Assembly (NCBI RefSeq): GCF_001652585.1
Contig: NZ_LWLG01000004.1
Coordinates: 83,464 to 115,463 of the forward strand
Length of the DNA: 32,000 bases
From: Thermosulfurimonas dismutans
Lineage (GTDB): Bacteria > Desulfobacterota > Thermodesulfobacteria > Thermodesulfobacteriales > Thermodesulfobacteriaceae
Direction: 5' to 3'
Each line of letters starts with the position of its first letter. The first letter of the stretch is position 1. This document shows positions 1-23,572 of this stretch, piece by piece. Made by a program: the position numbers and the translations under genes. The notes beneath the pieces are model-generated. The model was not told where the DNA came from and ran no database searches. It saw nothing but the letters and a program-made list of their open reading frames with translations.

Positions 1-760
1 CATCTCCTGGGTCGGTCAAAAACTTTATAAAAAATTCAGGGAGCTTTTGCGGAAATCTTGCAGGATGAGGTTTTACACCTACTATTTTACAACACCTTAA
101 ATATTGCGAATTACTTTCAGTATTTGGTATCTCAAGTAGGTTAGAAGGGATTGCTCCTCCCTTATTTTCAGAAAAGCGTTTACTTATGTTGTGTCCGGAA
201 GGCCTTTTTTTGGGAGAATAATATTTTTCACTATTCTGAAGAAGAATTTTCATTCTTTCAGAATAAGGAACTAGTACTTTAGTAACATTTGCTTTGGGAA
301 AATCGGATTTTGATAACCACCATATAGTATTAACAGCATCTTTAACACGAATTTTGCGTTTGTTGACCCATTCTATAGGAGATGGAAGTTTAGATGGATT
401 ATACCAAAAAAATTCTTCTGCTAAATTCCATCCCTGTTCATCGCAAAGTCTTATAAGAAGTCTATAGTTATAAAGTGAACGTACAGGTCTCCCTTTAAGA
501 TAAACTCCTCCGAGGTCAAGTACAAAACTACCTGTTTTTTTTAATACTCTCTTTACTTCAATGGTAAAATTTAAAAGCCAATCTATATATTCATTTTGAT
601 CTACATTGCCGTAATCTTTTTGACGTTGTAATGGAAATGGAGGTGAAGTTATTACAAGATCTATCGATTCTTCTGGTAGGAATTTAAGTAAACTCAAAGC
701 ATCTCCTACATAAGCTTCCCCTAAACGCGTTTTATACAACAATTTGAACGAAGATTTCAT
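1..760 (-). CDS. DNA methyltransferase, beta-class (motif IV before motif I), probably N4-cytosine specific. Partial: the 3' end lies left of the window.
   Basis: Not in the supplied ORF track because it runs off the edge. Hand translation of the - strand from ATG 760-758 gives 253 uninterrupted codons: MKSSFKLLYKTRLGEAYVGDALSLLKFLPEESIDLVITSPPFPLQRQKDYGNVDQNEYIDWLL...VKPHPARFPQKLPEFFIKFLTDPGD. DLVITSPPF is the catalytic (S/D)PP(F/Y) motif. FLTDPGD at the window edge looks like the start of the AdoMet-binding motif I. The SPPF form is typical of m4C enzymes. The start overlaps the stop of the upstream gene (ATGA at 757-760). Confidence 0.85.
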   Translation of the reverse strand, partial: MKSSFKLLYKTRLGEAYVGDALSLLKFLPEESIDLVITSPPFPLQRQKDYGNVDQNEYIDWLLNFTIEVKRVLKKTGSFVLDLGGVYLKGRPVRSLYNYRLLIRLCDEQGWNLAEEFFWYNPSKLPSPIEWVNKRKIRVKDAVNTIWWLSKSDFPKANVTKVLVPYSERMKILLQNSEKYYSPKKRPSGHNISKRFSENKGGAIPSNLLEIPNTESNSQYLRCCKIVGVKPHPARFPQKLPEFFIKFLTDPGD

Positions 761-2226
761 AAATTCTCCTCTAATCTCCAAATCCAGCTTGACATTATTT
801 TCCAAAATACAGTCACAGCAAAATATACCTCTTTATCTTTCATCTTAATTTGTTCCATTCCATTGATATATCTCTGGGGATCCTGCATACCAATAATATA
901 AGCAACCCATTTCCGAGCTTCTTCATCAGTCAAAAGATCTAACATTTCTTCGAGTCTAAATTTTCCTGTCTGGCTTAATGCCCATGCTATTCCTGCTCTT
1001 TCTAATTCATTACTTTCTGAAAATTTTTTTATTATTTCAAAAGTAAATTGTCGAGCAAGTTTACTTAAAGCCCTAGCAGCTTCAATTTGTATATTTTTTT
1101 CAGTGGCATTAAAAGCTTCAATGAGTGCATCTATAGCTCTTTTGTTGCTCAGTTCTCCAAGAGCCCAAGCCGCTCCAGCACGTATTTCTGCATCTTGCTT
1201 CTTATCTAAAAGAATTTCTATTAACATTTGGCAAGAAGCATCATTATTAATTTCTCCTAATATTATCACAGCTTCTAATCTGCATTCTAAAGAATCATTT
1301 GTTAAGCATTGTTTAATAAATTCATATCCAATATCATTTCCTTGTCGAAATAGACTTGCGGCTGCTTCAAGTTTTATAAGGAAATGTTCATATTGATCTT
1401 TAAGTTTCTTAACAAGAAGATCAGTAATCTCGGAAGAATGAAAAAAAGCAAGGGCTTTTATAGCAGCATATTTATTAGTTAATAATGAACTAGAGAGCCA
1501 CTTTATAAAATCTTCTTCTGAAAATAGCCTCTCACATGGCAAAGTTGAGGTTACAGGAACTACAGAAGCTATGATCTGATTTTTAGTAATCTTTTCACCT
1601 TCTTTGACCAAAGGCTTCAATCTTTTGTTTTGCTTCCAAAGTTTTAAAGGTATAATTCTTCCGTTACTTTCTTTTCGATATTTCAACCGATCAGACTCAA
1701 TTGATATAACAGTCCCGGCTGCCGAAGCAATACTTGCCGGCCATTGTATTCTCATCTCAAAACCTTCTTCTGCTCCTTTTGGTTGGGTTAAAATGGTAAG
1801 ATTGTTTTGGTGGGCTAATCGTAAATCTCTAACAGACACATATTGAATAGGACCGTCTATTTCCCAAGATAATGGATTATTTCCTATTTGTTTGCATGCA
1901 ACAAATGCAACAAAATCGTCATCTTTTAAGCCATAATCCCATTTCCGATTTTGATTAGATTCAGAATGAGACATAGAAATTTCAAGTTTACTTTTTGCTC
2001 TACATTCAATACATCTTCCGCATTTTATACAAAGCAAATCAGGAACTCTAATGCGTTTAATTTTTATCTTTTTCCAAATTTTAAAGCTCATTGATCCTCG
2101 TTCTAATTCAATAGGCTTATGTTCTAACTTTTTTAAATGATCAAAGATAGCTATGGTTCCTGTTGCGCCAAGAGAAATTTTTTTTAAAAAACTCTCATCA
2201 GATTTAAATGCCTTTCTATTCGCCAT
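757..2226 (-). CDS. 489-aa protein with an N-terminal Cys-cluster/nuclease-like domain and C-terminal HEAT (PBS-lyase type) repeats. Candidate endonuclease or effector partner of the methyltransferase.
   Basis: Track ORF. The N-terminus has RVPDLLCIKCGRCIECRAKSK, which reads as PD...ExK-like residues interleaved with a CX2CX2CX2C cluster. The C-terminal half has repeated HEAT_2-like units (AEIRAGAAWALGELSNKRAIDALIEAF, IQIEAARALSKLA, ERAGIAWALSQTG). It is AT-rich like the methyltransferase and its stop overlaps the methyltransferase start by 4 nt. Confidence 0.7.
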   Translation of the reverse strand: MANRKAFKSDESFLKKISLGATGTIAIFDHLKKLEHKPIELERGSMSFKIWKKIKIKRIRVPDLLCIKCGRCIECRAKSKLEISMSHSESNQNRKWDYGLKDDDFVAFVACKQIGNNPLSWEIDGPIQYVSVRDLRLAHQNNLTILTQPKGAEEGFEMRIQWPASIASAAGTVISIESDRLKYRKESNGRIIPLKLWKQNKRLKPLVKEGEKITKNQIIASVVPVTSTLPCERLFSEEDFIKWLSSSLLTNKYAAIKALAFFHSSEITDLLVKKLKDQYEHFLIKLEAAASLFRQGNDIGYEFIKQCLTNDSLECRLEAVIILGEINNDASCQMLIEILLDKKQDAEIRAGAAWALGELSNKRAIDALIEAFNATEKNIQIEAARALSKLARQFTFEIIKKFSESNELERAGIAWALSQTGKFRLEEMLDLLTDEEARKWVAYIIGMQDPQRYINGMEQIKMKDKEVYFAVTVFWKIMSSWIWRLEENL

Positions 2227-2274
2227 CTTATGATACTCCTTTTTTAGTACGCATTCTCAATAAGATGCGAGTTT

Positions 2275-2910
2275 TTAGTACTTCTTGATCTTCTGGCACA
2301 CCACGCCCACGATTTCGTGCTCGTCGGTCAATTCGATTTCCGGGTATTTTGGATTCAGGGGGCGGAGGATCCGCTTGTCGCCGTAAACCTTGAGTTGCCT
2401 CAGCACGGCCTCGCCCCTGCCGTTGCACGCCACCACGTAGCTCCCGGAGATGGGCCTGCGGGTGGGGTCCACCACAATGATGTCCTCCTCCGTGAACTCG
2501 GGCTCCATGGAGTCGTCGTTGACTCTCAGGGCGAAGGCTCGCGGGCTCGCAGGGATCACCTCCACCCAGTCCCAGTGCTCCTCAGAGGCGCGGTCGGCCA
2601 CCTTGAGGCCGTGGGAAGAGAGCTCTGTAGCTCCCCAGGTTTTGATCCAGCTCCAGGGGACCACCGGCACCTTCTCAACCCTCCTCACCTCAAGCCCCGC
2701 GGCCTCGGCAACCTCCTCAAAGGGCACCCCGAGGCCCAGGGCCAGCTTCTTCAGCGTTTCCACCTTGGGCTTTCGCTCGCCACGCTCAAGGAGCCGGATG
2801 TACTTCTCCGAGAGCCCGCTCCGCTTCGCGAGCTGGTTTATGGAGAGCCCCGCCTCCTCCCGCTTCCTGCGCACCCATTCGCCGAAGCTCACAGCCACAC
2901 CTCCTGACAT
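2275..2910 (-). CDS. CI/LexA-like repressor (XRE helix-turn-helix plus S24 peptidase autocleavage domain)
   Basis: The N-terminus LSINQLAKRSGLSEKYIRLLERGERKP is an XRE HTH. The C-terminus has ALRVNDDSMEPEF (catalytic Ser) and VLRQLKVYG (Lys), the S24 dyad. It is divergent from a Cro-like gene. Confidence 0.9.
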   Translation of the reverse strand: MSGGVAVSFGEWVRRKREEAGLSINQLAKRSGLSEKYIRLLERGERKPKVETLKKLALGLGVPFEEVAEAAGLEVRRVEKVPVVPWSWIKTWGATELSSHGLKVADRASEEHWDWVEVIPASPRAFALRVNDDSMEPEFTEEDIIVVDPTRRPISGSYVVACNGRGEAVLRQLKVYGDKRILRPLNPKYPEIELTDEHEIVGVVCQKIKKY

Positions 2911-2934
2911 TTGTCCTATCCAAAAACTTTTCTC

Positions 2935-2963
2935 TTGACAATTTCGGACTTTTGTCCGATAAT
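2935..2963 (+). promoter_or_regulatory. Sigma70-type promoter P1: TTGACA (2935-2940), 17-nt spacer, GATAAT (2958-2963), with an operator in the spacer
   Basis: Consensus -35 and near-consensus -10 read directly. The predicted start site falls at about 2970, which is the ATG of the Cro-like gene, suggesting a leaderless mRNA. Confidence 0.55.
2944..2959. promoter_or_regulatory. Operator O1, palindrome TCGGAC-TTTT-GTCCGA
   Basis: Perfect 6-bp inverted arms inside the P1 spacer. The same 16-mer family recurs at 3177, 8656 and 8921. Confidence 0.6.
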
Positions 2964-2969
2964 AAAACC

Positions 2970-3206
2970 ATGTCCACCGTTCACTTTAATCCGGAGGTCC
3001 TGAGGAGGCTAAGGGAGGAGATGGGGCTCACCCGCGCCGAGCTTGAGGCCAGAAGCGGCGTGGACCGGGACACCATCTACGCCTGGGAGAGTGGCCGAAG
3101 GACGCCCTCGGCCCGGAGGCTGGCCCAGGTCGCCCAGGCCCTCGGCGCAAGGCTCGACGATTTTTTTGGCCCGTGTTCGGACTTTTGTCCGCAAAAAGAT
3201 GGCTAG
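2970..3206 (+). CDS. Cro-like XRE-family HTH regulator
   Basis: MSTVHFNPEVLRRLREEMGLTRAELEARSGVDRDTIYAWESGRRTPSARRLAQVAQALG is a classic HTH_3 pattern. The track starts it at TTG 2952, but that lies inside the promoter, so ATG 2970 is preferred. Confidence 0.8.
   Translation: MSTVHFNPEVLRRLREEMGLTRAELEARSGVDRDTIYAWESGRRTPSARRLAQVAQALGARLDDFFGPCSDFCPQKDG
3177..3192. promoter_or_regulatory. Operator-like palindrome O2, TCGGAC-TTTT-GTCCGc
   Basis: 11 of 12 arm positions match O1. It sits 6 nt upstream of the repO-like ATG (3199), which has no Shine-Dalgarno sequence. Confidence 0.5.
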
Positions 3207-4071
3207 CCCCCAGGTGGAAAACGGCTACACCAGGATCGCGAACGAGCTCCTGGAGGCCCTCTGCCGGGCCAGGCTCGGGAGCCGGGAGCTCAAGGTAGTG
3301 CTGGCGGTGGTGAGGCTCACATACGGCTTTTTGCGCAAAGAAAACACCATCTCCCTGGGAAAGCTTGCGGAAATGACGGGGTTGAGAAGAGAGAGGCTCT
3401 CAGAAGTGGTCAAAGCCCTTGAGCGGAAAAATGTCCTGCGGGTCAGCAAGGAAAATGGCCGGCTGATCCTGGGACTGCAAAAAGACTACTCCAAGTGGAC
3501 GGGAGGGGTGTCCCAAAAACGGGGTACCCCAAAATTGGGACTGTCCCAAAAAAGGGTGTCCCAAAAACGGGGAACAGGGTGTCCCAATTTTGGGGAACAG
3601 GGTGTCCCAAAAAAGGGGAACACCCACACCCCTCAATCCCTTGAGTCTCAAGCGTTTCACGGCCCCCTAAAGAAAATATATAAAGAAAACTTTAAAGAAA
3701 CATCATCTATCTACAGAGAGGACGACTTCAAAGAAGTGATCTCCAAGTGGGAGGAGGTCTTCGGGGAGGCGTTTCCCCTTGAGAGGGCGCCGGAGAGCGT
3801 GAGGGCGGCGGACTTCATGCTTTACCTTCACGAGGCCGGGAGGCTCCCCGCGGTGAAGCGCCCCTCGGCCTACCTGAGAAAGCTTGCCGCGAGCGAGCTT
3901 GAGCCTTTCCCGAGCCTCGCCGAGCGGCGGGCCGCGGCCCGGGACGCAGAGGAGCGGATGCGCGAGCTCAACCGCCAACAGCTCGCCAAGCTCTACGCCC
4001 GCATGATGGCCGAGGGCTGGCCGGTCGAGGTCCCCGAGGAGCTCAGGCCCCTTGTGGCCCAAACCCAATAG
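3199..4071 (+). CDS. Phage replication protein O-like initiator
   Basis: MASPQVENGYTRIANELLEALCRARLGSRELKVVLAVVRLTYGFLRKENTISLGKLAEMTGL matches the Phage_rep_O N-terminal winged-helix pattern. A low-complexity linker is encoded by the iteron DNA. The track ORF begins upstream at 3043, and the internal Met at 3199 is chosen instead. Confidence 0.8.
   Translation: MASPQVENGYTRIANELLEALCRARLGSRELKVVLAVVRLTYGFLRKENTISLGKLAEMTGLRRERLSEVVKALERKNVLRVSKENGRLILGLQKDYSKWTGGVSQKRGTPKLGLSQKRVSQKRGTGCPNFGEQGVPKKGNTHTPQSLESQAFHGPLKKIYKENFKETSSIYREDDFKEVISKWEEVFGEAFPLERAPESVRAADFMLYLHEAGRLPAVKRPSAYLRKLAASELEPFPSLAERRAAARDAEERMRELNRQQLAKLYARMMAEGWPVEVPEELRPLVAQTQ
3505..3714. repeat. Candidate replication origin: 5-6 iterons (core TGTCCCAAAAA; the last three are tandem 22-23 bp units GGGTGTCCCAAWWWWGGGGAACA) followed by an AT-rich stretch (3668-3714)
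   Basis: TGTCCC cores at 3509, 3542, 3557, 3580 and 3603, plus a variant TACCCCAAAATTGGGA at 3525. Downstream is taaagaaaatatataaagaaaactttaaagaaacatcatc. The architecture mirrors lambda ori inside gene O. Confidence 0.6.
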
Positions 4072-4105
4072 GGGTTAAGTGAAAATTTTCACAAAGGGGG
4101 TAAGC

Positions 4106-4300
4106 ATGGTGGAGCACGAGATCAAAAAGCTCATGGCGGAGTTCGGGCCGGAGGCTGTGCTCAGCGCCGTCTCCGAGGCCCTCTCCCGCTGGGTGAGGGT
4201 GACCGGCAGGTGTCTTCTGACCGGGCGCAGGCTTGCCCACGAGAAGATCTGCGGCTACTGCCGCCGGTGCCCGGTGAAGCCCCTTGAGAGGAGGGCCTGA
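4106..4300 (+). CDS. Small hypothetical protein (64 aa) with a C-terminal CxxCxxC cluster
   Basis: GGGGG Shine-Dalgarno 6 nt before ATG 4106. The stop overlaps the rusA start. Contains EKICGYCRRCP. Confidence 0.5.
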   Translation: MVEHEIKKLMAEFGPEAVLSAVSEALSRWVRVTGRCLLTGRRLAHEKICGYCRRCPVKPLERRA

Positions 4301-4791
4301 TGCTTGCGGTCTTCGTGCGAGGGGTGCCCAGGCCCCAGGGGCGGCCGCGGATCGTGCGCTTCGCGAACGGGAAGGCCGGGCTCAAGGACCCGGAGGCCAG
4401 CCGGGACTGGAAGAACTACGTGCGGATGTGCGTGGCCGAGAGGGTGGCCGAGCCCCTCTCCGGGCCGGTGGCCCTGGAGCTCTGGTTCTACCTTCCAGTG
4501 CCGAAAAGTTTCTCAAGGAAAAAGCGTCTTGCGGCCCTTTCCGGGGAGATCCTACCGGCCAAAAAGCCCGACCTCGACAACCTGGTCAAGGCGGTGCTCG
4601 ACGCCATCCTGGGGGTGGCCGTGCTCGACGACCGGCAGATCGTGGAGCTCCGGGCTGGAAAGCTCTACGGGGCCGTGCCCGGGGTGGAAATCGTCGTAAA
4701 GGAGCCCGGGGAGTCCAGCTCAAAATCCCTTGAAAGGAGGAACGGATGCCGAGCTACACCCACGAGTTTGCTATCCGCTGCGTGGCTCTGA
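4300..4791 (+). CDS. rusA: RusA-family Holliday junction resolvase with a long C-terminal extension
   Basis: GRPRIV...LELWFYLPVPKS...KKPDLDNLVKAVLDAILGVAVLDDRQIVEL carries the RusA catalytic Asp motifs. Confidence 0.85.
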   Translation: MLAVFVRGVPRPQGRPRIVRFANGKAGLKDPEASRDWKNYVRMCVAERVAEPLSGPVALELWFYLPVPKSFSRKKRLAALSGEILPAKKPDLDNLVKAVLDAILGVAVLDDRQIVELRAGKLYGAVPGVEIVVKEPGESSSKSLERRNGCRATPTSLLSAAWL

Positions 4792-4976
4792 AGGAAAAGA
4801 GCGACCAGAACGTAGTGGAGGTCAAGCTTGAGATGGTGGTGCGGGACACGGAGGACCTCTCCTTCATCATGGACCTGGTGCGCCTCAAGCAGTTGCCCCT
4901 GGTCACGGTGAGCTTCCACTCGCCGCAACAGAGGCTTCCCCTGGAGGGAAAGGTTGAGTCTCGCCCTGCTAATTAG
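4746..4976 (+). CDS. Hypothetical protein (76 aa)
   Basis: Strong Shine-Dalgarno (GAAAGGAGGAACGG-ATG). No recognisable motif. Confidence 0.5.
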   Translation: MPSYTHEFAIRCVALKEKSDQNVVEVKLEMVVRDTEDLSFIMDLVRLKQLPLVTVSFHSPQQRLPLEGKVESRPAN

Positions 4977-5565
4977 CCTCGCCCTCCTTGCGGCGGCCCC
5001 GGCCCTGGCCGAGGACCCGGTGTCCTTCATCGTGGCCCGGAGCCCGGAGCTCTCCGAGCTTTCAAGCTTCAACCGGAGCCGGCTCTCCAACCTCACGGTC
5101 AAGCTCCGGGGCACGGTAAAGCAGGGCCAGGAGACGCTCTCCGGCCTCACGGCGGAGGAGAGGGCCCGGGTCGGCTACGACCTCAGGCTCATCGCCGAGC
5201 TCCCGCTTTTCTCGCCCAAGGAGCGCCTGGAGATGAGGCTCAGGGAGCTCAGGCTCAGGCGGAGGGTGCGCCAGGAGGCCGCTAGAGCTGTGGCCCGCTA
5301 CCGGAGCCTCAAAAAGACCGTGGCCAGGAGGCAGGCCCTGGTCGCCGCCGTCCGGGAGGAGTGCCTCTGGCTCAAGCGCAGGGTGGAGGCCGGGCTTGAG
5401 CCCTCGGAGCGGGTCATCTCCTGCGTGAAGGAGCTTGAGGGCCAGAAGGAGAAGCTCGAGACGCTCCGGGAGGAGCTCTCCGAGGCCCTTGAGACCGTGC
5501 TCTCAATGGTGGGGCCGGGGGACAGGGAGCGCCTCAAGGAGATCCTGGATGCGGAGGATCGTTAG
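4954..5565 (+). CDS. Secreted coiled-coil protein with a signal peptide
   Basis: TTG start preceded by GGAGGG. The N-terminus LALLISLALLAAAPALA-EDP looks like a signal peptide with an AxA cleavage site. The rest is Arg/Glu/Leu-rich heptad-like sequence. Confidence 0.55.
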   Translation: MSLALLISLALLAAAPALAEDPVSFIVARSPELSELSSFNRSRLSNLTVKLRGTVKQGQETLSGLTAEERARVGYDLRLIAELPLFSPKERLEMRLRELRLRRRVRQEAARAVARYRSLKKTVARRQALVAAVREECLWLKRRVEAGLEPSERVISCVKELEGQKEKLETLREELSEALETVLSMVGPGDRERLKEILDAEDR

Positions 5566-6184
5566 CTCGTTTCAGAGGATCGGCCGGAGGTTCTACGGCA
5601 CGGTCTCGGTTAAGGCCTTCGGCCGCAGGGTGGATCACTTCCGGCTCCGGGCCGGGATGAGCGTGCTCATCGAGGGCGGGCCGCTTTCCGGGAAAACGGC
5701 CTTCCTGCGGCGCCTGGCCTCTCAGCTCGCCGAGCTCCGGGAGCCCGTAATCTTCATTGATGCCACTTCCCCAGTGACCAAGTGGCTCTCCGAGGTCACG
5801 CCCCCGGTGCCCCTGAGCGCGAGGAAGGCCCTCTCCTGGAGGCTTGCGAACCTGCCGGAGCGGTTCTACCTCCTTCTCGACAACGCCGAACGGGTGGCCG
5901 ACGGCCAGAAGCTGGAGGTGGTGCTGGAGCTCCTGGCCAGGGCCCGCACCGCGGTGGTGGCCGGGCGATCCTACTCCTCCCTCCACCCAAGGCTCCAGGC
6001 CCGCCTGCGTGAGGCCAAGGTGGTCTCCCTGGGTTGCGGGGCCGACACCTTCGACGCCACCTACGTGCTCGTAGCCGTGCTCATCATCTTGGTGGCGCTC
6101 TCCGGGATGCACCACCTGGTGCTCCTGGCCGCGGCCGTGCGCTACCTCTTCCAGGGGATCAGGATCGGGGGCCGAAGGATATGA
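5549..6184 (+). CDS. P-loop ATPase with a C-terminal transmembrane anchor
   Basis: Walker A is IEGGPLSGKTAFL and Walker B-like is FYLLLDNAE. The C-terminal hydrophobic helix is VLVAVLIILVALSGMHHLVLLAAAV. Internal ATG 5549 has an AAGGAGA Shine-Dalgarno, and the track ORF starts earlier at 5435. Confidence 0.6.
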   Translation: MRRIVSSFQRIGRRFYGTVSVKAFGRRVDHFRLRAGMSVLIEGGPLSGKTAFLRRLASQLAELREPVIFIDATSPVTKWLSEVTPPVPLSARKALSWRLANLPERFYLLLDNAERVADGQKLEVVLELLARARTAVVAGRSYSSLHPRLQARLREAKVVSLGCGADTFDATYVLVAVLIILVALSGMHHLVLLAAAVRYLFQGIRIGGRRI

Positions 6185-6777
6185 CCTGGCCGAGCCACAT
6201 CCTCATGGGGATCGCGCTTGCCAAGGGCTTCGACCTTTCGCTTCCCTGGTGCGTGGCCGGGAGCCTGTTTCCGGATCTTGCCGAGATGCTTGCGAGGCGC
6301 ATCGTGGTCCGGGGGAAAGCGGTCTTCGTCGGCCTCCCCCAGATCGCCCACCGCACCTACACCCACTCTCTGCTCTTCGCCGGGCTTTGCCTCCTTGCAG
6401 GCTGGGGAATCTTCCCGATCCGGAGCTTCTTCGCCGGGGTGCTCTTTGGGCACCTGCTTCTCGACGCCCTCACCGTGATGGGCGTTCCGGTGGTTGACGG
6501 GAGGCACCGCAGGGTTACCCTTTTCGGAGGGAAGATCCGCACGGGGTCGCTCGCCGAACTCGTGGCGGTGCTGGCCCTCGCGTTCACCACCTACGCCGTG
6601 GCCCCAGCCGTGAAGGTCGGTGGCCTTGAGGACCTCTACCAGCAGGGGGTGATAGACAGGTATGAGTACGAAAAGAGAAAGAAGGCCCTTTTCGATCTTC
6701 TTCTTTGGCGCCACTCTGGCCCTCCTCCTTCTCGGCACCTTCCTCCCTCTGTGGAGCGCCTACTCGAAGAGCCTTGA
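6181..6777 (+). CDS. DUF457/YdjM-type membrane-bound metal-dependent hydrolase fused to a SHOCT domain
   Basis: MTWPSHILMG, FPDL, HRTYTHSLLF and GHLLLDALTVMGVP are YdjM-family signatures. LEDLYQQGVIDRYEYEKRKKALF matches SHOCT. ATGA overlap with the upstream ATPase gene. Confidence 0.7.
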   Translation: MTWPSHILMGIALAKGFDLSLPWCVAGSLFPDLAEMLARRIVVRGKAVFVGLPQIAHRTYTHSLLFAGLCLLAGWGIFPIRSFFAGVLFGHLLLDALTVMGVPVVDGRHRRVTLFGGKIRTGSLAELVAVLALAFTTYAVAPAVKVGGLEDLYQQGVIDRYEYEKRKKALFDLLLWRHSGPPPSRHLPPSVERLLEEP

Positions 6778-7201
6778 GGCCCGGGTGGTTAAGGTTTACG
6801 ACGGGGACACGGTAACGGTTCTGCTGGGTGGGCGGCGCGAGAGGGTCCGTCTCATCGGGATAGACTGCCCGGAGCTCCGTCAAAGGCCCTGGGGAAAGCG
6901 CGCCAGGGACTTTCTGAGGCGGCTCGTCCTGCACCGCACCGTGCGCCTGGAGCTGGATGTTGATCCCTGGGATCGCTACGGGCGCCTCCTGGCCTATGTG
7001 TGGCTTGACGGCGAGCTCGTGAACGAGACCCTGGTCAGGGAGGGGCTCTGCCTGATCTACACCGTGCCGCCCAACGTGAAGCATGCGGAGAGGTTCCGGG
7101 AGGCCCAGAGGTGGGCCAGGGAGCACGGCCGGGGCTTCTGGGCCGAGGGCGGGCTCTCGGAAACGCCCTACCAGTGGCGCAGGCGCCACCGCAGGCACTA
7201 G
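6662..7201 (+). CDS. Membrane-anchored staphylococcal-nuclease (SNase/thermonuclease) homologue
   Basis: N-terminal TM helix FSIFFFGATLALLLLGTFLPLW. Then VVKVYDGDTVTV...RVRLIGIDCPE...DRYGRLLAYVWLDGELVNETLVREGL, the SNase fold signature. Confidence 0.85.
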   Translation: MSTKRERRPFSIFFFGATLALLLLGTFLPLWSAYSKSLEARVVKVYDGDTVTVLLGGRRERVRLIGIDCPELRQRPWGKRARDFLRRLVLHRTVRLELDVDPWDRYGRLLAYVWLDGELVNETLVREGLCLIYTVPPNVKHAERFREAQRWAREHGRGFWAEGGLSETPYQWRRRHRRH

Positions 7202-7545
7202 CCTCCGCCTTCCATCCCCCACCCACCCGCCCTTCCTGCGGCCCTTGCGGGCCGGGGGCCTCGCCCCGCCTAAGCCGGGGGGCGGGCCTCGGCCCCACCG
7301 GGCGATCCGGCCCGTCCGGGTGGGCTCGCCCGCACCTGGGGTCCGGCCCGAAAAAGAAATCTAACCCACCGAAAATGCGCCTCTAAACGGCCCATATTTG
7401 GCCTCTAAGAGGATTTTTTTGGCCAATAGTATCGAACATATCGGGGCGAGAAAATCGATTCTGGGGCGAATCTGAGCGGATTTTTCACCGGGCTTGTCCT
7501 GGGACCACCTAACGGCTAGGGCCACCTAACCGGGTCATGATTTGA

Positions 7546-8640
7546 GTTGAGTTTCTGGCTCGCCACAGCCTCCCCCGCCACCGGCGCCCCCCTCCCCCGA
7601 AGTGCTCGGCCCCCTCCCCCCGCCGCGCCGTCGGCCTCGCCCCCGCTCCAGGGGGAGGGGGCCTGCGCTGTCTTTGAGGCTCGGTGCCTCCGGTGCCGTG
7701 GGAAAGGCTGGAAGCGTCCTGCGGTGGGAAAAGCCCGTGGAATAGAAACCTTCCAGCCTTTCCCCCTCTTTCAGTTGTAGCCCTCCGGCCCCTTATGCGG
7801 CGCAAGGCCTCCGGCCCCTGACGGGGCCTCCGCAAGCTCGCTCCGGGGCTTTGCCCCTCCGCTCGGCCTTGCCCCGCGGGGCCTCCGGGCTGTTCCAAAA
7901 GTGCGGGGTTCGGCTGGGGAAAAAGGCTTTTGGGTTTTTTTGGCCTGGGGGCCTTGGGGCTCTGTGCCTCCGGGGCCTGTGGGTCCGGCCCTTCCGCCTG
8001 CGGTGGGGCCGGCCCGTTAAAAAAACTTTTGGGGGTGTGGCTATGGGCGGCGTTTCTCCCTTGGCTTGCCTTCCGGTTTTTTCGGCGGTTTCGGTCTCGG
8101 CGGTGGCCTTCGGGGGCGGGGCGGTGCTCCGGCGCTCGTCCCGGTCGCTCTCCGGGTTCGTGGCCTGGTGCTGGTTCCCGTCCTGGGGGCTTGCCCGGCG
8201 GTGGGCCTCCTTCTGGGCCGGGCGGCTTCCGGCCGCGTGCCGGGGCGTGGTGGTGCGCCGGGCGCCGTTTCCGGCCTCGGGGTGGGTGGTTTCCGTGCCG
8301 GTGCTCCCTCGGGTGGGGGCGTGCCGTGGTTAGGTTGCCGGGGTGGGCTTCGGCGGCCGGGGGCCGGGTGCTCCGGGTTCTCGGCCCCGCGGTGACGGTC
8401 TGGTTCCCCTCCGGGTTTCTGGCCCAGGCCTTCGCCCTCTCCTGCGGGCTCTCCCCGGCTCGGGCCTTCCGGGCGCCCTCCGGGGGCTTTGCCGTGGTGG
8501 TGCCGGCCTCGGCCCTCTCCTCCGTCCGGCCCCGGTGCGCCTTCTGCGCCCGCCTAGGCCGCTGTGCCGTGGCCTCCCCCGGCCCGGGGTGCGGCTTCCG
8601 CCCCTTCCGGCGCCCGCCCCGCCAGGGCTCCCTCTTCAAA
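7546..8640. other. GC-rich tract with the + strand almost devoid of A. Probably non-coding.
   Basis: Hand count: between 8043 and 8623 the only A residues are at 8043, 8332, 8395, 8426 and 8556. Positions 8044-8331 form a 288-nt run with no A. All track ORFs here overlap in several frames on both strands. Confidence 0.8.
7700..7764. repeat. Perfect 15-bp inverted repeat GGGAAAGGCTGGAAG / CTTCCAGCCTTTCCC with a 35-nt loop
   Basis: Arms at 7700-7714 and 7750-7764, read directly and exactly complementary. Confidence 0.75.
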
Positions 8641-8648
8641 TTGGGGGC

Positions 8649-8677
8649 TTGACATTCGGACAAATGTCCGATAAAAT
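8649..8677 (+). promoter_or_regulatory. Sigma70-type promoter P2: TTGACA (8649-8654), 17-nt spacer, TAAAAT (8672-8677), with an operator in the spacer
   Basis: Read directly. It is followed by a GGGGGTGG Shine-Dalgarno (8693-8700) and ATG 8705. Confidence 0.55.
8656..8671. promoter_or_regulatory. Operator O3, TCGGAC-AAAT-GTCCGA
   Basis: Perfect arms identical to O1, inside the P2 spacer. Confidence 0.6.
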
Positions 8678-8704
8678 GAAGCCAATAAGAGAGGGGGTGG
8701 GACG

Positions 8705-8917
8705 ATGAGAAAAGAAACAAAAAGACTTTTAAAACAGGCTTACAAGGCGGCTATAAGAGCAAGCGAAGAAATGGGAGAGAACTTTTTGAATCCGTGGTTT
8801 TTCTTGGGATACATGGAGTTCAGCGGCTTGAAGGATCTGTCCGGAGACGAGGTTTTTCGCATAATGCGCTGGCTTTGGACCTGGGACAAGAACAGAAACT
8901 CAAAATTTTTTGCCTAG
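8705..8917 (+). CDS. Hypothetical protein (70 aa), first gene of the P2 operon
   Basis: Good promoter and Shine-Dalgarno context. Trp/Phe-rich, noticeably lower GC than its surroundings, no known motif. Confidence 0.55.
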   Translation: MRKETKRLLKQAYKAAIRASEEMGENFLNPWFFLGYMEFSGLKDLSGDEVFRIMRWLWTWDKNRNSKFFA

Positions 8918-8920
8918 TGT

Positions 8921-8936
8921 TCGGACAAAAGTCCGA
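8921..8936. promoter_or_regulatory. Operator-like palindrome O4, TCGGAC-AAAA-GTCCGA
   Basis: Perfect arms. It lies between the stop at 8917 and the AAGGAGG Shine-Dalgarno of the next small gene. Confidence 0.5.
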
Positions 8937-8950
8937 AAAAGGAGGAAAGA

Positions 8951-9124
8951 ATGTTTGGAAAAGACGAGAGCTTCGAGGCCTTTCTGAGGAACGAGTACTG
9001 GGCCTTTGGGGGCTACGAGCGCCCCGGCGAGTGGGAGGAGGAGGAGGAGGAGTCCTCGGCGTTTTGGGCGGACGACGATCCCTTCGACCGCTACGCCGAG
9101 AGCCTCGATCTCCTGGCCCCGTGA
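8951..9124 (+). CDS. Small acidic protein (57 aa), below the ORF-track size cutoff
   Basis: Hand translation: MFGKDESFEAFLRNEYWAFGGYERPGEWEEEEEESSAFWADDDPFDRYAESLDLLAP, then a stop. Strong Shine-Dalgarno (AAAGGAGGAAAGA-ATG). The overlapping 194-aa track ORF in another frame looks spurious. Confidence 0.5.
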   Translation: MFGKDESFEAFLRNEYWAFGGYERPGEWEEEEEESSAFWADDDPFDRYAESLDLLAP

Positions 9125-9155
9125 AAAAAACAGCCCGGCCCCTCGGCGGGCCGGG
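9124..9155 (-). terminator. Intrinsic-terminator-like hairpin for - strand transcription: 8-bp GC stem CCCGGCCC/GGGCCGGG, followed on the - strand by T7
   Basis: Stem at 9134-9141 and 9148-9155, loop ctcggc. The A7 run at 9124-9130 reads as U7 after the hairpin on the - strand. There is no U-run on the + strand side. Confidence 0.35.
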
Positions 9156-9169
9156 GAAAGGAGGGAGAG

Positions 9170-9601
9170 ATGAAGCAAGCCAAGCAATCTTTGAGGGTGA
9201 AGCAGACGGACGAGTTCGTGAACCCGGTGACCGGCGAGGTGATCTCGCCTTCGGGCCTGGAGCAGATGCTCCTCAACATGCTCTACGGCCTCTCGAACGT
9301 CCAGAAGTTCTACCTGGTGAACGAGCTCTTGAAGGGGCTCAAGCGCGGGCGGGATCTCCTGCGCAAGAAGCTCCTTGAGGAGCTCGACAACCGGCCAAGG
9401 CAGGAGGGGGAGCTTGTGGCCTACGTGCGGGAGCGGGAGCAGAGGCGGTTTGACGCCAAGGCTTTCGAGCGCGAGCATCCTGAGCTTTACCGAGCCTACC
9501 TTCGGCCGGTGCGCCAAAAAGTCGTAGTGGTGGAGAAGCCGGACCTGGTCTTTGAGATCTCTCGGCCGGAGCTTTCCGCCGCCGAGGACATGCCGCTTTA
9601 G
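9170..9601 (+). CDS. Hypothetical phage-type early protein (143 aa, coiled-coil)
   Basis: Shine-Dalgarno GGAGGGAGAG-ATG. No diagnostic motif. Confidence 0.6.
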   Translation: MKQAKQSLRVKQTDEFVNPVTGEVISPSGLEQMLLNMLYGLSNVQKFYLVNELLKGLKRGRDLLRKKLLEELDNRPRQEGELVAYVREREQRRFDAKAFEREHPELYRAYLRPVRQKVVVVEKPDLVFEISRPELSAAEDMPL

Positions 9602-9611
9602 GAGGTGGAGC

Positions 9612-10124
9612 ATGAAGAGGCTCGGCGAACTCAAGCCCATCAAGGACTTTCGGGAGGAGGAGAGGCAGGCAAGGCTTCCCCAGGGATTCAAGCCCCAGGA
9701 GCAGATCGCCTTGGGCCAGGCCGCGGCCGACGCCCTCATGGACGTGGTGCGCCGGCAGGGGCTCTCCAAGAAGATAGAGGGAAAGGAGTACCTCTTTTAC
9801 GAGGCCTGGCTCACCCTAGGACGGTTTTTCAAATTAACGCCCAAGGTAGAGTGGTCAAAGCCCATTTGGCACGAGGGGCGGGTAATTGCTTGGGAGGCCC
9901 GGGCCGTGGTGGTGGATGAGGAGGGCCGGGAGGTGGCCGCGGCCGAGGCCATGTGCGGGAAGGACGAGAAGGGCTGGGCCAAGCGCCCGGCCTATGCCCT
10001 GCGCTCCATGGCCCAGACCCGGGCCTGCGCCAAGGCCCTGCGCTCCGTGCTTTCCTGGATCGTGGTCTTGGCGGGCTTTGCACCCACCCCTGCAGAGGAA
10101 ATCGAGAATGGAGCTGACGCCTGA
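9612..10124 (+). CDS. Hypothetical protein (170 aa), possibly a Rad52/Sak-like single-strand annealing protein
   Basis: Strong Shine-Dalgarno (TAGGAGGTGGAGC-ATG). The C-terminal SMAQTRACAKALRSVL resembles the A-x-T-x-A-x-K/R-A-L-R helix of phage annealing proteins. The function call is weak. Confidence 0.55.
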   Translation: MKRLGELKPIKDFREEERQARLPQGFKPQEQIALGQAAADALMDVVRRQGLSKKIEGKEYLFYEAWLTLGRFFKLTPKVEWSKPIWHEGRVIAWEARAVVVDEEGREVAAAEAMCGKDEKGWAKRPAYALRSMAQTRACAKALRSVLSWIVVLAGFAPTPAEEIENGADA

Positions 10125-10380
10125 GACCCTCCGAGCGCTGATCCAGGAGGCCGTGCGGGAGGCCCTGGCTGAGGCCGGGGCCTCCCAGAGGTGGCTCACC
10201 CTGCGCGAGGCTTGCAGGTACGCCCGGGTCTCAAAAAACACCCTCCGGAGGCTCATTGACGAGGGCTACATCACCGCCAAGCGGCTCGACGGAAAGTGGA
10301 TAGTTGACCGGCTCTCCATCGACGCCTTCTACGGCTCTGAGGCGGGCTTTATTGCCAGGGTGGTGGAAAGGATGCTATGA
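10108..10380 (+). CDS. xis: Excisionase-family (MerR-like HTH_17) DNA-binding protein
   Basis: WLTLREACRYARVSKNTLRRLIDEGYITAKRLDGKWIVDRLSIDAF. It lies immediately upstream of the integrase and overlaps it (ATGA). Confidence 0.75.
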   Translation: MELTPETLRALIQEAVREALAEAGASQRWLTLREACRYARVSKNTLRRLIDEGYITAKRLDGKWIVDRLSIDAFYGSEAGFIARVVERML

Positions 10381-11426
10381 AGATCTTGATGCACCTCTGG
10401 CGGCGGGAAAACGGCATCTACTACATCGTTTGGCGGGACCGGGACGGGCGCCAGCGGATGCGCTCCACCCGCACCCGGGACAAGGCTCTCGCCCGCCGCA
10501 TCTTCAACCAGTTCAAGCGCCAGTGGCTCGCCGGAAAGCTGGTGGAGCTCGACCGGGGGCCGAAGGTTCCCTTTGGGCGCTTTGTGGAGGAGTTCCTGCG
10601 CTGGGCCGAGAGCACGCTCAAGCCCGCCACGTCCGAGACCTACCGCCACGCCCTGAAGCACGCCCTGGAGGTCTTCGGGGCCTCGCGGACGCTTGACTCC
10701 ATCAGGAGCCGGGATCTCGACGCCCTTCTCGTCCACCTGCGCCAAAAGGGCCTCTCCCCGGTTTCAGTGAACAAAGTCTTCCGGCACTTGAAGGCCGCTT
10801 TTTCCAAAGCCGTTGAGTGGAGCTACCTGCGGGAGAACCCGGTCAAGAGGGGGAACCCCCTGCGGGTCCAGAGGGAGCTCCCGCGTTTTCTCTCCCAGGG
10901 GGAGATCCTGCGGCTCCTCCGGGCCATCGAGGACCCGCACTTCCGAGCCTTCGTGAGGTTCGCCCTCTTTTCGGGCCTGAGAAGGAGCGAGCTCCTCGCC
11001 CTCACTTGGGAGCACCTGGACCTCAAACGGGGCTTCGTTCGGGTTCCGCTGGGGAAGGGCACGGAGGAGCGGTTTCTGCCCATTTCAAGCCGCCTGCGGG
11101 AGGTGATCGAGGACCTGAGAGCCTTGGGGGTCAAGGGCAGGCTCTTTCCTTGGAGCAGGAGCTATGTGAGCCACCGGTTCCAGAGGTATGCTCGGAAAGC
11201 CGGGCTTTCCGGGGTTCGGCTCCACGACCTGCGGCACACCTTCGCCAGCCACCTGGTCATGGCCGGAGTGGACATCCGCACGGTGCAGAAGCTAATGGGC
11301 CACGCGGACATCAAGGCCACCATGGTTTACGCCCAGCTGAGCCCGGACCACCTGCGGGAAGCCATGGAGCGGCTTAACCTCGGGCAGGAGCCGCACTTGC
11401 GGGTGATAGAAGGCGGTCGGAAGTAA
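10377..11426 (+). CDS. int: Tyrosine recombinase / phage integrase
   Basis: ALFSGLRRSELLAL (Arg I), HDLRHTFASHLVMAGVDIRTVQKLMGHADIKATMVYAQL (H-x-x-R ... H ... Y catalytic set). Confidence 0.95.
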   Translation: MKILMHLWRRENGIYYIVWRDRDGRQRMRSTRTRDKALARRIFNQFKRQWLAGKLVELDRGPKVPFGRFVEEFLRWAESTLKPATSETYRHALKHALEVFGASRTLDSIRSRDLDALLVHLRQKGLSPVSVNKVFRHLKAAFSKAVEWSYLRENPVKRGNPLRVQRELPRFLSQGEILRLLRAIEDPHFRAFVRFALFSGLRRSELLALTWEHLDLKRGFVRVPLGKGTEERFLPISSRLREVIEDLRALGVKGRLFPWSRSYVSHRFQRYARKAGLSGVRLHDLRHTFASHLVMAGVDIRTVQKLMGHADIKATMVYAQLSPDHLREAMERLNLGQEPHLRVIEGGRK

Positions 11427-11681: not shown

Positions 11682-11757
11682 GCCGGTGTAGCTCAGCAGG
11701 TAGAGCAGTGGATTCGTAATCCACAGGTCGGGGGTTCGAGTCCCCCCGCCGGCTCCA
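11682..11757 (+). tRNA. tRNA-Thr (anticodon CGT), CCA encoded
   Basis: GCCGGTG-TA-GCTC-AGCAGGTA-GAGC-A-GTGGA-TTCGTAA-TCCAC-AGGTC-GGGGG-TTCGAGT-CCCCC-CGCCGGC-T-CCA folds as a complete cloverleaf. Confidence 0.95.
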
Positions 11758-21947: not shown

Positions 21948-23572
21948 ACTTTCTTCTGTGGCGTGTCTTTCTCCTCCTCTTTCTTATTTTCTTGTTCCCC
22001 CTTAAGCTCCAGGCCTTGACAGCTTCGGAGAAGGCTTTTCTCTCAGCCAAAAAGGAACTCGAAAGGTTTGCCAAATCTCCCAGGGTCAAATACCGGCGCT
22101 ACTGGCTCAACATCATCAACCGATTTCGTCGGGTATATCTGAGGTATCCCGAAAGCCCTGAGGCCCCCAAGGCCCTAATCTGGACCGCTCGTCTGTACCG
22201 AAACCTTTACGGCTACTCTCACAACCAGAAAGATCTCAAGGAGGCCCTGCGGCGCTACCGCATGCTTTGGGAACATTATCCCAAGAGTGCACTTGCGGAT
22301 GACGCCCTTTATGAAGCTGCGGAGATCTACGAAAAGTTTCTCAAGGACCCTCAAAAGGTCCAGGAATTACGGGATATCCTCCTCAAACGTTACCCCAACG
22401 GTGACATGGCTCCCAAGGTTAGGGGGCCAAAGTCCACCCCGGAAACCTATTCTCCGAAAAAGCCGGACAAAGAACCAAAAATCTCTGGAAAGGCTCTAGT
22501 CAAGGGAGTGAGACACTGGTCAGGTGAGGATTACAGTCGAGTAGTAGTAGATCTCACCAAAAGGATTCACTTCGATGATCACGTGCTCAAAGCCCATCAG
22601 GGCAAACCTCCTCGGGTCTATGTGGACCTTAAGCCGGCAAGACTCTCCCCTTACGTGAAACCCGAAATTCCCATTCAGGATGGGCTCCTTACCAGGGTTC
22701 GTCTGGGCCAGTATCTCCCGGATACCGTAAGGGTAGTACTGGATCTCAAAAGTTTCACCTCTCACCGCACTTTTTACCTTGGCGATCCTCCGAGACTCGT
22801 CATTGACCTCATCGGGGAAGAGGCCGAAAAGGCCAGATTCAAACCTCTTCCGGCAGGCAAATACTCCTTGGCCCAGCAACTCGGACTCAAAATCCACCGT
22901 ATCGTGATAGATCCCGGACACGGAGGCCGCGATCCAGGGGCTCTTGGACTTTACGGGTTAAAGGAAAAACATATCACCCTTAAGGTCTCTAAATATCTAG
23001 CCGAGGAACTCAAGAACTGTCTCGGCTGCGAAGTCATTCTCACCAGGGATCGTGACATCTTCCTTCCCCTCATCAAACGGCCAGCCATAGCCAATCTAAA
23101 GAGAGCCGATCTCTTCGTTTCCATCCATGTGAACGCCGCTCCCAATCGGAAAAGCCGGGGCATAGAAACGTACTACCTTAGTTTTACTACCGATCCTGAA
23201 GCCATGCGGGTAGCGGCCCTAGAAAATGCGGTCTCCAACCAATCGTTAAGCGATCTCCAAAACCTCCTCAAAAAAATCCTTCGAAACACCAAGATCGAGG
23301 AATCAAAGAGACTGGCCCAAAAAGTTCAAACCGCCCTGGTAAAAAGGCTCTCCAGAAAATACCGGGGAGTACGAAATCTAGGGGTAAAAAAGGCCCCCTT
23401 CGTAGTTCTGGTGGGCACGCGAATGCCGGCCATCCTGGTGGAGATCTCCTTCATCACCAATCCCACCGAGGCCAAAAGACTGCGCTCTGAAGCCTATCTC
23501 CGAGAGGTAGCGCGAGGCATTGCCGAAGGCATAAAGAACTACGTGAGGGAAATCCAGGTGGCGGGGAAATGA
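21944..23572 (+). CDS. N-acetylmuramoyl-L-alanine amidase (signal peptide, TPR-like region, AMIN domain, Amidase_3)
   Basis: IVIDPGHGGRDPGA, DLFVSIHVNA, and an AMIN-like VRHWSGEDYSRVVVDL. Confidence 0.9.
   Translation: MNFLLWRVFLLLFLIFLFPLKLQALTASEKAFLSAKKELERFAKSPRVKYRRYWLNIINRFRRVYLRYPESPEAPKALIWTARLYRNLYGYSHNQKDLKEALRRYRMLWEHYPKSALADDALYEAAEIYEKFLKDPQKVQELRDILLKRYPNGDMAPKVRGPKSTPETYSPKKPDKEPKISGKALVKGVRHWSGEDYSRVVVDLTKRIHFDDHVLKAHQGKPPRVYVDLKPARLSPYVKPEIPIQDGLLTRVRLGQYLPDTVRVVLDLKSFTSHRTFYLGDPPRLVIDLIGEEAEKARFKPLPAGKYSLAQQLGLKIHRIVIDPGHGGRDPGALGLYGLKEKHITLKVSKYLAEELKNCLGCEVILTRDRDIFLPLIKRPAIANLKRADLFVSIHVNAAPNRKSRGIETYYLSFTTDPEAMRVAALENAVSNQSLSDLQNLLKKILRNTKIEESKRLAQKVQTALVKRLSRKYRGVRNLGVKKAPFVVLVGTRMPAILVEISFITNPTEAKRLRSEAYLREVARGIAEGIKNYVREIQVAGK

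Follow-up and report, generated by a model that had tools for sequence, protein, structure and literature searches.

We analysed a window of 32,000 nucleotides (nt) from Thermosulfurimonas dismutans (contig NZ_LWLG01000004.1, positions 83,464 to 115,463; all coordinates below refer to this window unless stated otherwise), in which a tract that is almost devoid of adenine on the plus strand lies inside a lambda-like integrative element of ~9 kb. Comparative sequence analysis indicates that positions 8043-8652 are two overlapping plus-strand protein-coding genes under purifying selection, termed ORF-A and ORF-B (ORF, open reading frame), and that A is selected against as a nucleotide on their sense strand (or T in the template). 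As a whole, the observations are best explained by two A-less coding genes of a mobile cassette in which A is selected against and which would thereby evade a base-specific attack, an account that we regard as on balance probable.

A recount identified exactly five A on the plus strand in 8043-8623 (at 8043, 8332, 8395, 8426, and 8556) and none over the 288 nt of 8044-8331 (C 90, G 125, T 73), in full agreement with a preliminary description of this DNA. The latter had also stated that A occurs almost only as homopolymer runs at about 7860-8040, where we found it confined to three runs (7897-7900, 7920-7924, and 8019-8025), and it had correctly placed the region between the SNase gene (6662-7201) and promoter P2 (8649-8677). 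The extent of 1.1 kb given there for DNA almost free of A, however, holds only for the right part: with a limit of ≤5% A per 100 nt the strict A-poor tract covers 8022-8651 on the plus (sense) strand, corresponding to a T-poor template strand, whereas 7546-8021 is moderately A-poor and 7546-7860 contains 33 A per 315 nt (10.5%). The tract is GC-rich with G exceeding C on the sense strand, and the few remaining A belong largely to the conserved TAG of ORF-A, the ORF-B stop codon, the ATG, and some conserved residues. The second longest run lacking one base within the window comprises 41 nt and the longest one in 1.05 Mb of unrelated control loci 168 nt, distant giant-virus matches to SNase serving as composition controls; at the local A frequency (pA = 0.17), chance would produce a run of 288 nt without A somewhere in the window with a probability of 1.6e-19.

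ORF-A (8043-8333, plus strand, 96 amino acids (aa)) starts with ATG and ends with TAG, and ORF-B (8326-8652, plus strand, 108 aa) starts with GTG and ends with a TGA that falls inside the -35 box of P2. An A-free Shine-Dalgarno (SD) motif, GGGGGTG (8031-8037, plus strand), is located 5 nt before the ORF-A start codon, and the same G-rich motif recurs before ORF-B as GGGTGGGGG (8311-8319, plus strand). Directly 5' of ORF-A, GGGGGTGT is present in the T. dismutans clade as well as in the Competibacter loci, with 0 matches in the 1.05 Mb of controls. The SD motif, the ATG/GTG start, and the TAG occupy the same alignment position in five divergent elements, and all five keep the 8-nt overlap between the end of ORF-A and the start of ORF-B, which suggests that the two genes are translationally coupled. 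The start codon of ORF-B varies between GTG and ATG among the elements. The tracts of the relatives exhibit real sequence similarity beyond their shared composition, and ORF-B is kept in loci L085, L086, L090, and L091 and partly in L083, L084, and L092. Pairwise comparison of five sequences resulted in codon-position differences of 194:201:446 and a ratio of nonsynonymous to synonymous substitution rates (dN/dS) of 0.28 for ORF-A, and of 243:209:479 and 0.30 for ORF-B, with third-position substitutions being ~2.3-fold above those at first and second positions in both ORFs. The antisense mirror frames, which share the third positions, gave a dN/dS of 0.39 (ORF-A) and 0.42 (ORF-B), and the other four frames yielded values >1.2. 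The same three-base periodicity was obtained from a frame-agnostic alignment of the DNA only (ORF-A 189:189:434).

The NCBI records contain T. dismutans hypothetical proteins that are 100% and 99% identical to ORF-A and ORF-B, respectively. The NCBI version of ORF-A (P0122, annotated as hypothetical protein) begins two codons upstream, and P0147, a T. dismutans hypothetical protein, is the sole database match of ORF-B. Nearly all residues of ORF-A come from the ten amino acids that have A-less codons. AlphaFold predicts a compact alpha/beta fold for ORF-A (predicted local distance difference test (pLDDT) 85.3, predicted template modelling score (pTM) 0.74); no significant structural neighbour of this model was found, and searching Pfam and PHROGs with ORF-A, ORF-B, and a 403-aa minus-strand ORF gave nothing significant. 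The C-terminal part of ORF-B bears a CxxC...C...C motif, and its weak likeness to the ORF-A domain (hhalign E 6e-4, probability 29%) weakly suggests that ORF-B is a second, diverged copy of that domain with a Cys-rich tail. Comparison of ORF-B with DprA yielded nothing in BLASTP and a probability of 0.2% in hhalign, and the GSR...GxAxGxD motif was not found in it.

Since every stop codon requires A (or T on the opposite strand), all six frames are open in the tract, giving rise to a pile of artefactual ORFs, among them the 403-aa ORF. The preliminary description had rightly noted the near-absence of stop codons in nearly all frames and had concluded that the ORFs are probably artefacts. This conclusion applies to the 403-aa ORF (7509-8720, minus strand), which lies on a T-free strand leaving no room for a stop or start codon. 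Its codon positions are flat (19% A at third positions vs 5% in the real genes of the element), the dN/dS in its frame is 1.46 over the ORF-A part and 0.42, the mirror-frame value only, over the ORF-B part, and it extends across P2 into the start of the next gene. It fails, in contrast, for the plus-strand ORF-A and ORF-B, given their periodicity, dN/dS, conserved SD, start and stop signals, homologues, and the predicted fold of ORF-A.

The suggestion that the constraint operates at the nucleotide level is supported by synonymous sites. At four-fold degenerate sites A accounts for 1/163 (0.6%) in ORF-A and ORF-B as compared to 60/776 (7.7%) across eight further element genes (p = 1.6e-4). The corresponding values are 2-4% vs 17.5-21.5% in lower-GC relatives (p down to 1e-9) and 0-4.6% vs 12-26% in the neighbouring genes for Competibacter, L095/L096, and L097 (p 3e-7 to 4e-16). 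Taken over ten loci other than the window, the same ranges of 0-4.6% and 12-26% apply, with p between 1e-5 and 1e-16. Arg is encoded by CGN in 23 of 24 cases in the tract ORFs as opposed to 114 of 170 in neighbouring genes, AGR being avoided, and all Ser codons (22/22) are of the TCN type, AGY being avoided. This avoidance of A at four-fold sites and in the codons for Arg and Ser implies that the constraint acts on the nucleotide, atop selection on the protein. NAN, ANN, and NNA codons are all depleted together, and Ile, Met, Thr, and Tyr are missing while Val, Leu, Ser, and Phe are plentiful. A-free SD motifs and GTG starts occur at 7 of 10 loci, and GTG stands in place of ATG at the first cassette ORF at 5 of 10 loci and also at most second ORFs.

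Every relative examined carries an A-free tract at the same place, even in hosts with DNA of 57-59% A+T, and all contigs encoding close relatives of the 170-aa protein of the element (69-91% identity) have an A-depleted tract immediately upstream of a P2-type promoter. Homologous elements thus show comparable A depletion at the same position, the lack of which, according to the preliminary description, would have pointed to a random low-complexity expansion. Two related contigs, L083 (1-182) and L084 (1-216), start within the A-free tract, and the extreme composition at this site may break short-read assemblies.

A profile of ORF-A matched 416 clusters among 1.84 billion representatives, and for 143 clusters the match had E <1e-10. 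The family motif is R.S.RSLSGFV...F.S...A..FA..W..RLP..CRGC.VR...W.VSVPV, and homologues of normal composition retain SxRSxTGxV...FA..WA.RLP..C.G..VR...VSVP. The ten amino acids that codons without A can specify account for a median of 94% of the residues in 171 family members vs 53% in a control family, and 23 of the 171 lie below 80% and have ordinary composition. As such members exist beside the A-less majority, A-lessness is imposed on the gene and is not needed by the fold.

ORF-A and a second gene of 172-189 aa together make up the A-free tract in Competibacter, in L097, and in a contig rich in A+T (L095/L096). The product of the second gene shows weak but recurrent matches to DprA (Pfam PF02481, E 1e-5 to 3e-2; solved DprA chains, E 0.005-0.03), with all DprA/YAcAr matches falling below curated thresholds, and DprA-type motifs (GSR ... 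GxAxGxD) are found in the second gene of L094, L096, L097, L107, and L108. The normal-composition pair in L109 matches PF10686 (YAcAr, a SLOG family), and P0182 is a single protein in which the ORF-A and partner domains are fused. Downstream of the A-less cassette of L094 a 332-aa protein is encoded that has the same Rad52-like C-terminal motif as the 170-aa protein of the window. Its C-terminal part (L094 4100-4600) is T-poor (2-3 T per 100 nt) owing to an E/A/K/R/P/Q-rich low-complexity tail, amino-acid composition alone being sufficient there.

The DprA-like gene is also present on cyanobacterial plasmids, which PLSDB types as non-mobilizable. On pSYSX of Synechocystis PCC 6803 (L107, NC_005232.1) this gene (SGL_RS01470) is A-less on a plasmid of 59% A+T, and it is followed by genes for ArdA, Gp157, and a Rad52/Rad22 protein. 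Immediately upstream of it lies a C-less gene of 154 aa (SGL_RS01465; L107 2876-3340, record 22487-22951), the sense strand of which contains 0-2 C per 100 nt and ~45% A, the counts at four-fold sites being T 11, A 15, G 4, and C 0; its product has weak Pfam matches to Cupin and to 2OG-Fe(II)-oxygenase (AlkB-type). On Synechococcus plasmids a zincin-type protein is encoded further downstream on the same strand as the cassette. The family thus has DprA/YAcAr-like, Rad52-like, SSB, and ArdA genes as neighbours, and its carriers are plasmids and prophage-like elements from distant phyla.

Several further observations concern the surroundings of the family members. T-poor plus-strand tracts are located a few kb from Competibacter A-less cassettes (L103 8600-9492, L104 8978-9646, and L105 6219-6529) and may be further A-less genes on the opposite strand or encode T-less low-complexity proteins. 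In L111 a stretch with 7.6% A (1-801) immediately precedes an ORF-A relative of normal composition, the module also encoding a Sak4-like ATPase and SSB; the frame chosen there by the gene caller is probably wrong. Each Competibacter tract has one or two copies of the E. coli-type Chi octamer GCTGGTGG (L094, L099, L101, L102, L103, L105, and L106), always on the sense strand, as compared to an expectation of 0.1-0.3; these tracts are mutually related and hence not independent. Chi sites, of which the tract of the window has none, were rejected as a general explanation.

As to the reason for the avoidance of A, we tentatively propose that the cassette is kept free of a base that some widespread attack needs, which we hold to be possible rather than probable. 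The attacker would most likely be an adenine-dependent endoribonuclease or an RNA-modifying effector acting on the transcript. The encoded proteins appear to handle single-stranded DNA or to aid establishment of the element, and an A-free message would allow them still to be made while other expression is shut down. Selection for a base-lacking sequence is favoured because one mutational bias cannot yield an A-less gene and a C-less gene with 45% A side by side. An RNA-level version, which takes up the proposal of the preliminary description that an A-free transcript might escape endoribonucleases, appears to be the most economical one, with a DNA-level version as a serious rival. Extended to all cases, three-letter-alphabet genes on mobile elements might each lack the base targeted by a widespread host attack on RNA or single-stranded DNA, a generalization that we put forward with the same reserve.

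Several points weigh against this account. The relatives of ORF-B are detectable only within its own clade, and a dN/dS of 0.3 reflects moderate purifying selection only. In L096 and L097 the 5' untranslated region (UTR) and the SD are rich in A, and the A-free run sets in immediately behind the ATG; this pattern agrees better with a constraint on the ORF or the DNA than with a constraint on the entire transcript. We found no promoter or terminator in the window that belongs to the cassette itself, so that its mRNA would be part of a longer, A-containing transcript. Finally, the C-less neighbour on pSYSX shows that the principle is not adenine-specific.

The strongest rival, which we judge to be rather unlikely, is a constraint at the DNA level, where a sense strand without A or a template without T is what matters. 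The template might escape a thymine-directed modifier of single-stranded DNA of the DarT type, the DNA might offer no target to systems whose recognition site includes A in each strand (Type I as well as most adenine-methylating restriction or BREX-like systems), or, under a defence that drains the (d)ATP pool, synthesis and transcription of the sense strand might proceed without this nucleotide. DarT enzymes are known to ADP-ribosylate two bases, T and G. The lack of C in the pSYSX neighbour, and hence of G in its template, would agree with the first version, and the pSYSX cassette heads an array resembling a conjugative leading region (ArdA, Gp157, Rad52). The zincin-type protein encoded downstream on the same strand in the Synechococcus plasmids and the extension of the A-poor state into the untranslated leader and SD in most loci also fit a constraint on DNA. 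Shielding of 0.6-1 kb, however, would leave the rest of the element open to restriction, and a single-strand stage is not evident from RepO with its internal iterons and the lack of conjugation genes in the window and L090. Moreover, the A-free run in L096 and L097 coincides with the ORFs, whereas the promoter-proximal DNA is A-rich.

The abrupt onset of the A-free run behind the start codon in L096 and L097, next to an A-rich UTR, would also be expected if the constraint concerned codons and tRNAs, as would the joint depletion of NAN, ANN, and NNA codons. The genes would then avoid codons read by tRNAs with U in the anticodon and stay translatable under attack by nucleases that cleave anticodons (PrrC, colicin E5, PARIS, and Cas13a on the tRNA side) or mRNA in the A-site (RelE and HigB on the mRNA side). 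We consider this improbable, as GTG starts and the A-free GGGGGTG SD leave tRNA usage unchanged and A-poor leaders reach 130-250 nt upstream in two phyla.

Scarcely less improbable is a form of self-immunity in which the SLOG/DprA-like enzyme and its partner act on adenine in nucleic acids or nucleotides and the base they attack is excluded from the gene or mRNA encoding them. Enzymes cleaving the N-glycosidic bonds of adenine nucleotides are among those with a SLOG fold, and the C-less pSYSX gene has its weak match to AlkB, a class that acts on damaged C and A, as would be expected if the composition of such a gene followed the substrate of its enzyme. ORF-B of the window is not DprA/SLOG-like, however, normal-composition versions of both genes exist, and no catalytic prediction is backed by a significant match.

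A mutational origin by local strand-specific adenine deamination or A-to-G editing, with selection keeping only indispensable A, has very little probability. The restriction of the remaining A to the ATG, stop codons, and a few conserved residues and the excess of G over C on the sense strand are what it would predict, but the positions of rare A align to G:C:T = 66:52:26 in the relatives, which is near base composition and not G-specific. In L096 and L097 the tract ends where the genes end, beside A-rich UTRs, and the neighbouring gene on pSYSX lacks C while containing 45% A. Moreover, plasmids and prophage-like elements that share the trait come from distant phyla and have replication genes unrelated to one another. 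These findings speak against the A-to-G hypermutation considered in the preliminary description.

Still less can be said for a non-coding element (structured RNA, G-quadruplex or R-loop DNA, insulator, or low-complexity expansion) with accidental ORFs, which would account for the open frames, the GC richness with G above C, and the structured appearance of the upstream leader. For 8043-8652 it is already contradicted by the codon periodicity and dN/dS in the named frames, the conserved SD, start and stop, the confident ORF-A fold, and homologues of ordinary composition. The thermostable structured RNA suggested in the preliminary description was rejected, as folding was no better than that of shuffled sequences (z-scores -0.23 for the plus and +0.87 for the minus strand) and there was no Rfam match at gathering score or with E up to 1. 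Likewise, prediction of the G-quadruplexes considered in the same description as well as of i-motifs (four runs of ≥3 G (or C), loops of 1-7 nt) gave zero motifs on either strand of 7546-8651. Tandem-repeat or low-complexity expansion was dismissed since only four arrays of 19-31 nt with ~2 copies each were detected, and a replication origin in the tract since the origin is placed elsewhere, at the RepO iterons. A cause at the protein level only, according to which an Arg/Gly/Ala/Val/Ser/Pro/Trp/Phe composition that is indeed extreme and conserved entails A-poverty, is just as improbable and is already contradicted by the synonymous-site tests: A is missing at four-fold sites, in the choice of CGN over AGR and TCN over AGY, in the SD, and in the start codon, Ile, Met, Thr, and Tyr are absent despite abundant Val, Leu, Ser, and Phe, and family members of ordinary composition keep the domain.

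Upstream of ORF-A the plus strand has a GC-rich, moderately A-poor leader with hairpins (7669-8042), where A residues occur only in runs able to pair with T runs. It contains the decamer GGCGCAAGGC (7799, plus strand), which precedes ORF-A by 135-244 nt in the T. dismutans clade and by ~150 nt in Competibacter and has 0 matches in the 1.05 Mb of controls. Its positions are 7799 and 3144 in the window, 607 in L085, 2196 in L086, 332 and 5623 in L090, 455 in L091, 1844 in L094, 406 in L101, and 5852 in L102, the second copy lying in the P1 leader or the 5' region of RepO. In L094 the decamer is one arm of an 11-bp hairpin, and the stretch of 135-250 nt that leads up to ORF-A forms long GC-rich hairpins. 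The consensus structure of the leader, derived from four relatives excluding the window's own leader, has 43 nested pairs, only 2 of which are compensatory, so that covariation is sparse. The leader is preceded by a C-rich element of ~110 nt (7553-7668) with the hairpin GGCCCC(CTCCCC)C ... G(GGGGAG)GGGCC and three CCTCCCCC-like repeats. Its mean column identity across four elements is 77%, above that of the adjacent coding sequence, both arms of the hairpin have matched deletions in L090, and no Rfam match to 7553-7668 was obtained. The C-rich element and the leader with GGCGCAAGGC are probably cis-acting signals for the cassette.

The element is foreign DNA with a G+C content of ~65% as compared to ~52-55% for the chromosome. 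ORF-A and ORF-B are located at the distal end of its repressor-controlled replication operon, and the recombination/integration operon follows directly downstream. The part from the repressor to SNase (2275-7201) comprises the S24/HTH repressor (2275-2910, minus strand), promoter P1 with operators at 2943-2958 and 3176-3191, RepO (3043-4071), genes for RusA, a P-loop protein, and a YdjM-like membrane protein, and SNase. Four iterons GGGTGTCCCAAAAACGGGGAACA of 23-27 nt inside the RepO gene (3502-3622) are likely the replication origin, as in lambda. P2 (8649-8677, plus strand; TTGACA, 17-nt spacer, TAAAAT) forms the right border of the tract and contains the same operator as P1, TTCGGACAAATGTCCG (8655-8670). 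It is followed by the P2 operon (8705-11426, plus strand), which encodes two small proteins, the 143-aa protein with weak RecE-like similarity, the 170-aa protein with a Rad52-like C-terminal motif (9612-10124), an excisionase, and an integrase; a tRNA-Thr gene lies at 11682-11757. The palindromic operator TTCGGAC(N4)GTCCGA is present in four copies (2943-2958, 3176-3191, 8655-8670, and 8921-8937), and L086-L088 and L091 have a different half-site, TCGTAC...GTACGA; these differing half-sites point to a change of repressor specificity.

The same element genes are found circularly permuted in L090 (JGI contig Ga0256833_1003154, 11,376 nt; positions 1-11044), in the order tract, P2 operon, integrase, repressor, P1, RepO ... 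SNase, which suggests that L090 is the excised circular form. No att repeats of ≥16 nt were detected at the flanks of the element, and neither the window nor L090 was found to encode a relaxase or type IV secretion proteins. The left flank (1-2270) has 31-35% G+C, rising to 44% in the last 270 nt, and contains a 489-aa HEAT-repeat gene on the minus strand. It may represent another foreign island, or the insertion may in truth have its left end here.

Searches for near-identical DNA in phage and plasmid collections gave no match, and no exact-protein records of SNase and of a 70-aa gene were found. Relatives of SNase among viral contigs were limited to distant giant-virus matches. A first genome scan with the ORF-A alignment returned no match, and a second one returned Competibacter copies only, its pattern being derived from that group. 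Locus L093 was discarded as a spurious match within a methyltransferase of a 72% GC contig, and tblastn of a normal-composition ORF-A relative against plasmids and phages gave no match.

Selection can hold a functional, apparently folded protein to the ten amino acids F, L, S, C, W, P, R, V, A, and G for the sake of its nucleotide sequence, a reversal of the usual hierarchy of protein and codon constraints. Mobile elements that are unrelated to each other share the trait in Thermodesulfobacteria, Gammaproteobacteria, and Cyanobacteria, and in every case genes for single-stranded DNA recombination or anti-restriction lie next to it, which implies a common pressure tied to one base when these genes must work. 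If the generalization given above holds, genes lacking a base would be a new evasion strategy and a genomic read-out of the bases that bacterial immunity targets. An A-less and a C-less gene are both present in the genetic model Synechocystis PCC 6803. In addition, tracts free of one base mislead gene callers into antisense or out-of-frame ORFs.

Among known systems, mRNAs that resist mRNA interferases, such as ACA-less messages and MazF, are likewise purged of the nuclease target by codon choice while the protein is kept, and the expected outcome is likewise continued expression while other messages are cut. In that case the target is a motif of 3-7 nt, whereas here the whole nucleotide is removed, forcing a ten-letter amino-acid alphabet. 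Synthetic G-less or three-letter cassettes have the same formal property, one nucleotide being absent from the transcribed strand, so that one NTP is not needed and one base-specific reaction is impossible; unlike these laboratory-made, non-coding sequences, the present ones are natural, protein-coding, and conserved across phyla. Diversity-generating retroelements and deaminase footprints also show a strand-specific effect on one base, but here there is no reverse transcriptase or repeat pair and no A-to-G signature, and the sequence is conserved.

The leading-region arrays of plasmids (ArdA, ArdC, SSB, PsiB; Samuel et al. 2024, PMC11541004) are resembled by pSYSX, where the A-less DprA-like gene heads a co-oriented array of the ArdA/Gp157/Rad52 type and the array genes are, as in leading regions, small, uncharacterised, and linked to single-stranded DNA. 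The available part of Shaw et al. 2026 (PMC13478746) describes leading-region composition as GC richness and codon adaptation, not as loss of one base. The T. dismutans element differs from such arrays in being small, lambda-like, integrative, and without conjugation genes. Recombination modules of phages and plasmids that combine DprA/YAcAr (SLOG) and Rad52-type genes are a further parallel, since the second A-less gene is DprA-like and Rad52-like genes follow in Competibacter, cyanobacterial plasmids, and other contigs, whereas ORF-B of the window itself is not detectably DprA-like. In the incomplete library that was searched we found no description of adenine-free or cytosine-free genes of bacteria or mobile elements or of three-letter alphabets, and for YAcAr and SLOG only a comparative-genomics paper naming the domain; this agrees with the statement of the preliminary description that no described element class matches. 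The ORF-A family is rated as uncharacterised and DprA/YAcAr as assignable by fold only, and the phenomenon of the A-less gene is rated as new in kind.

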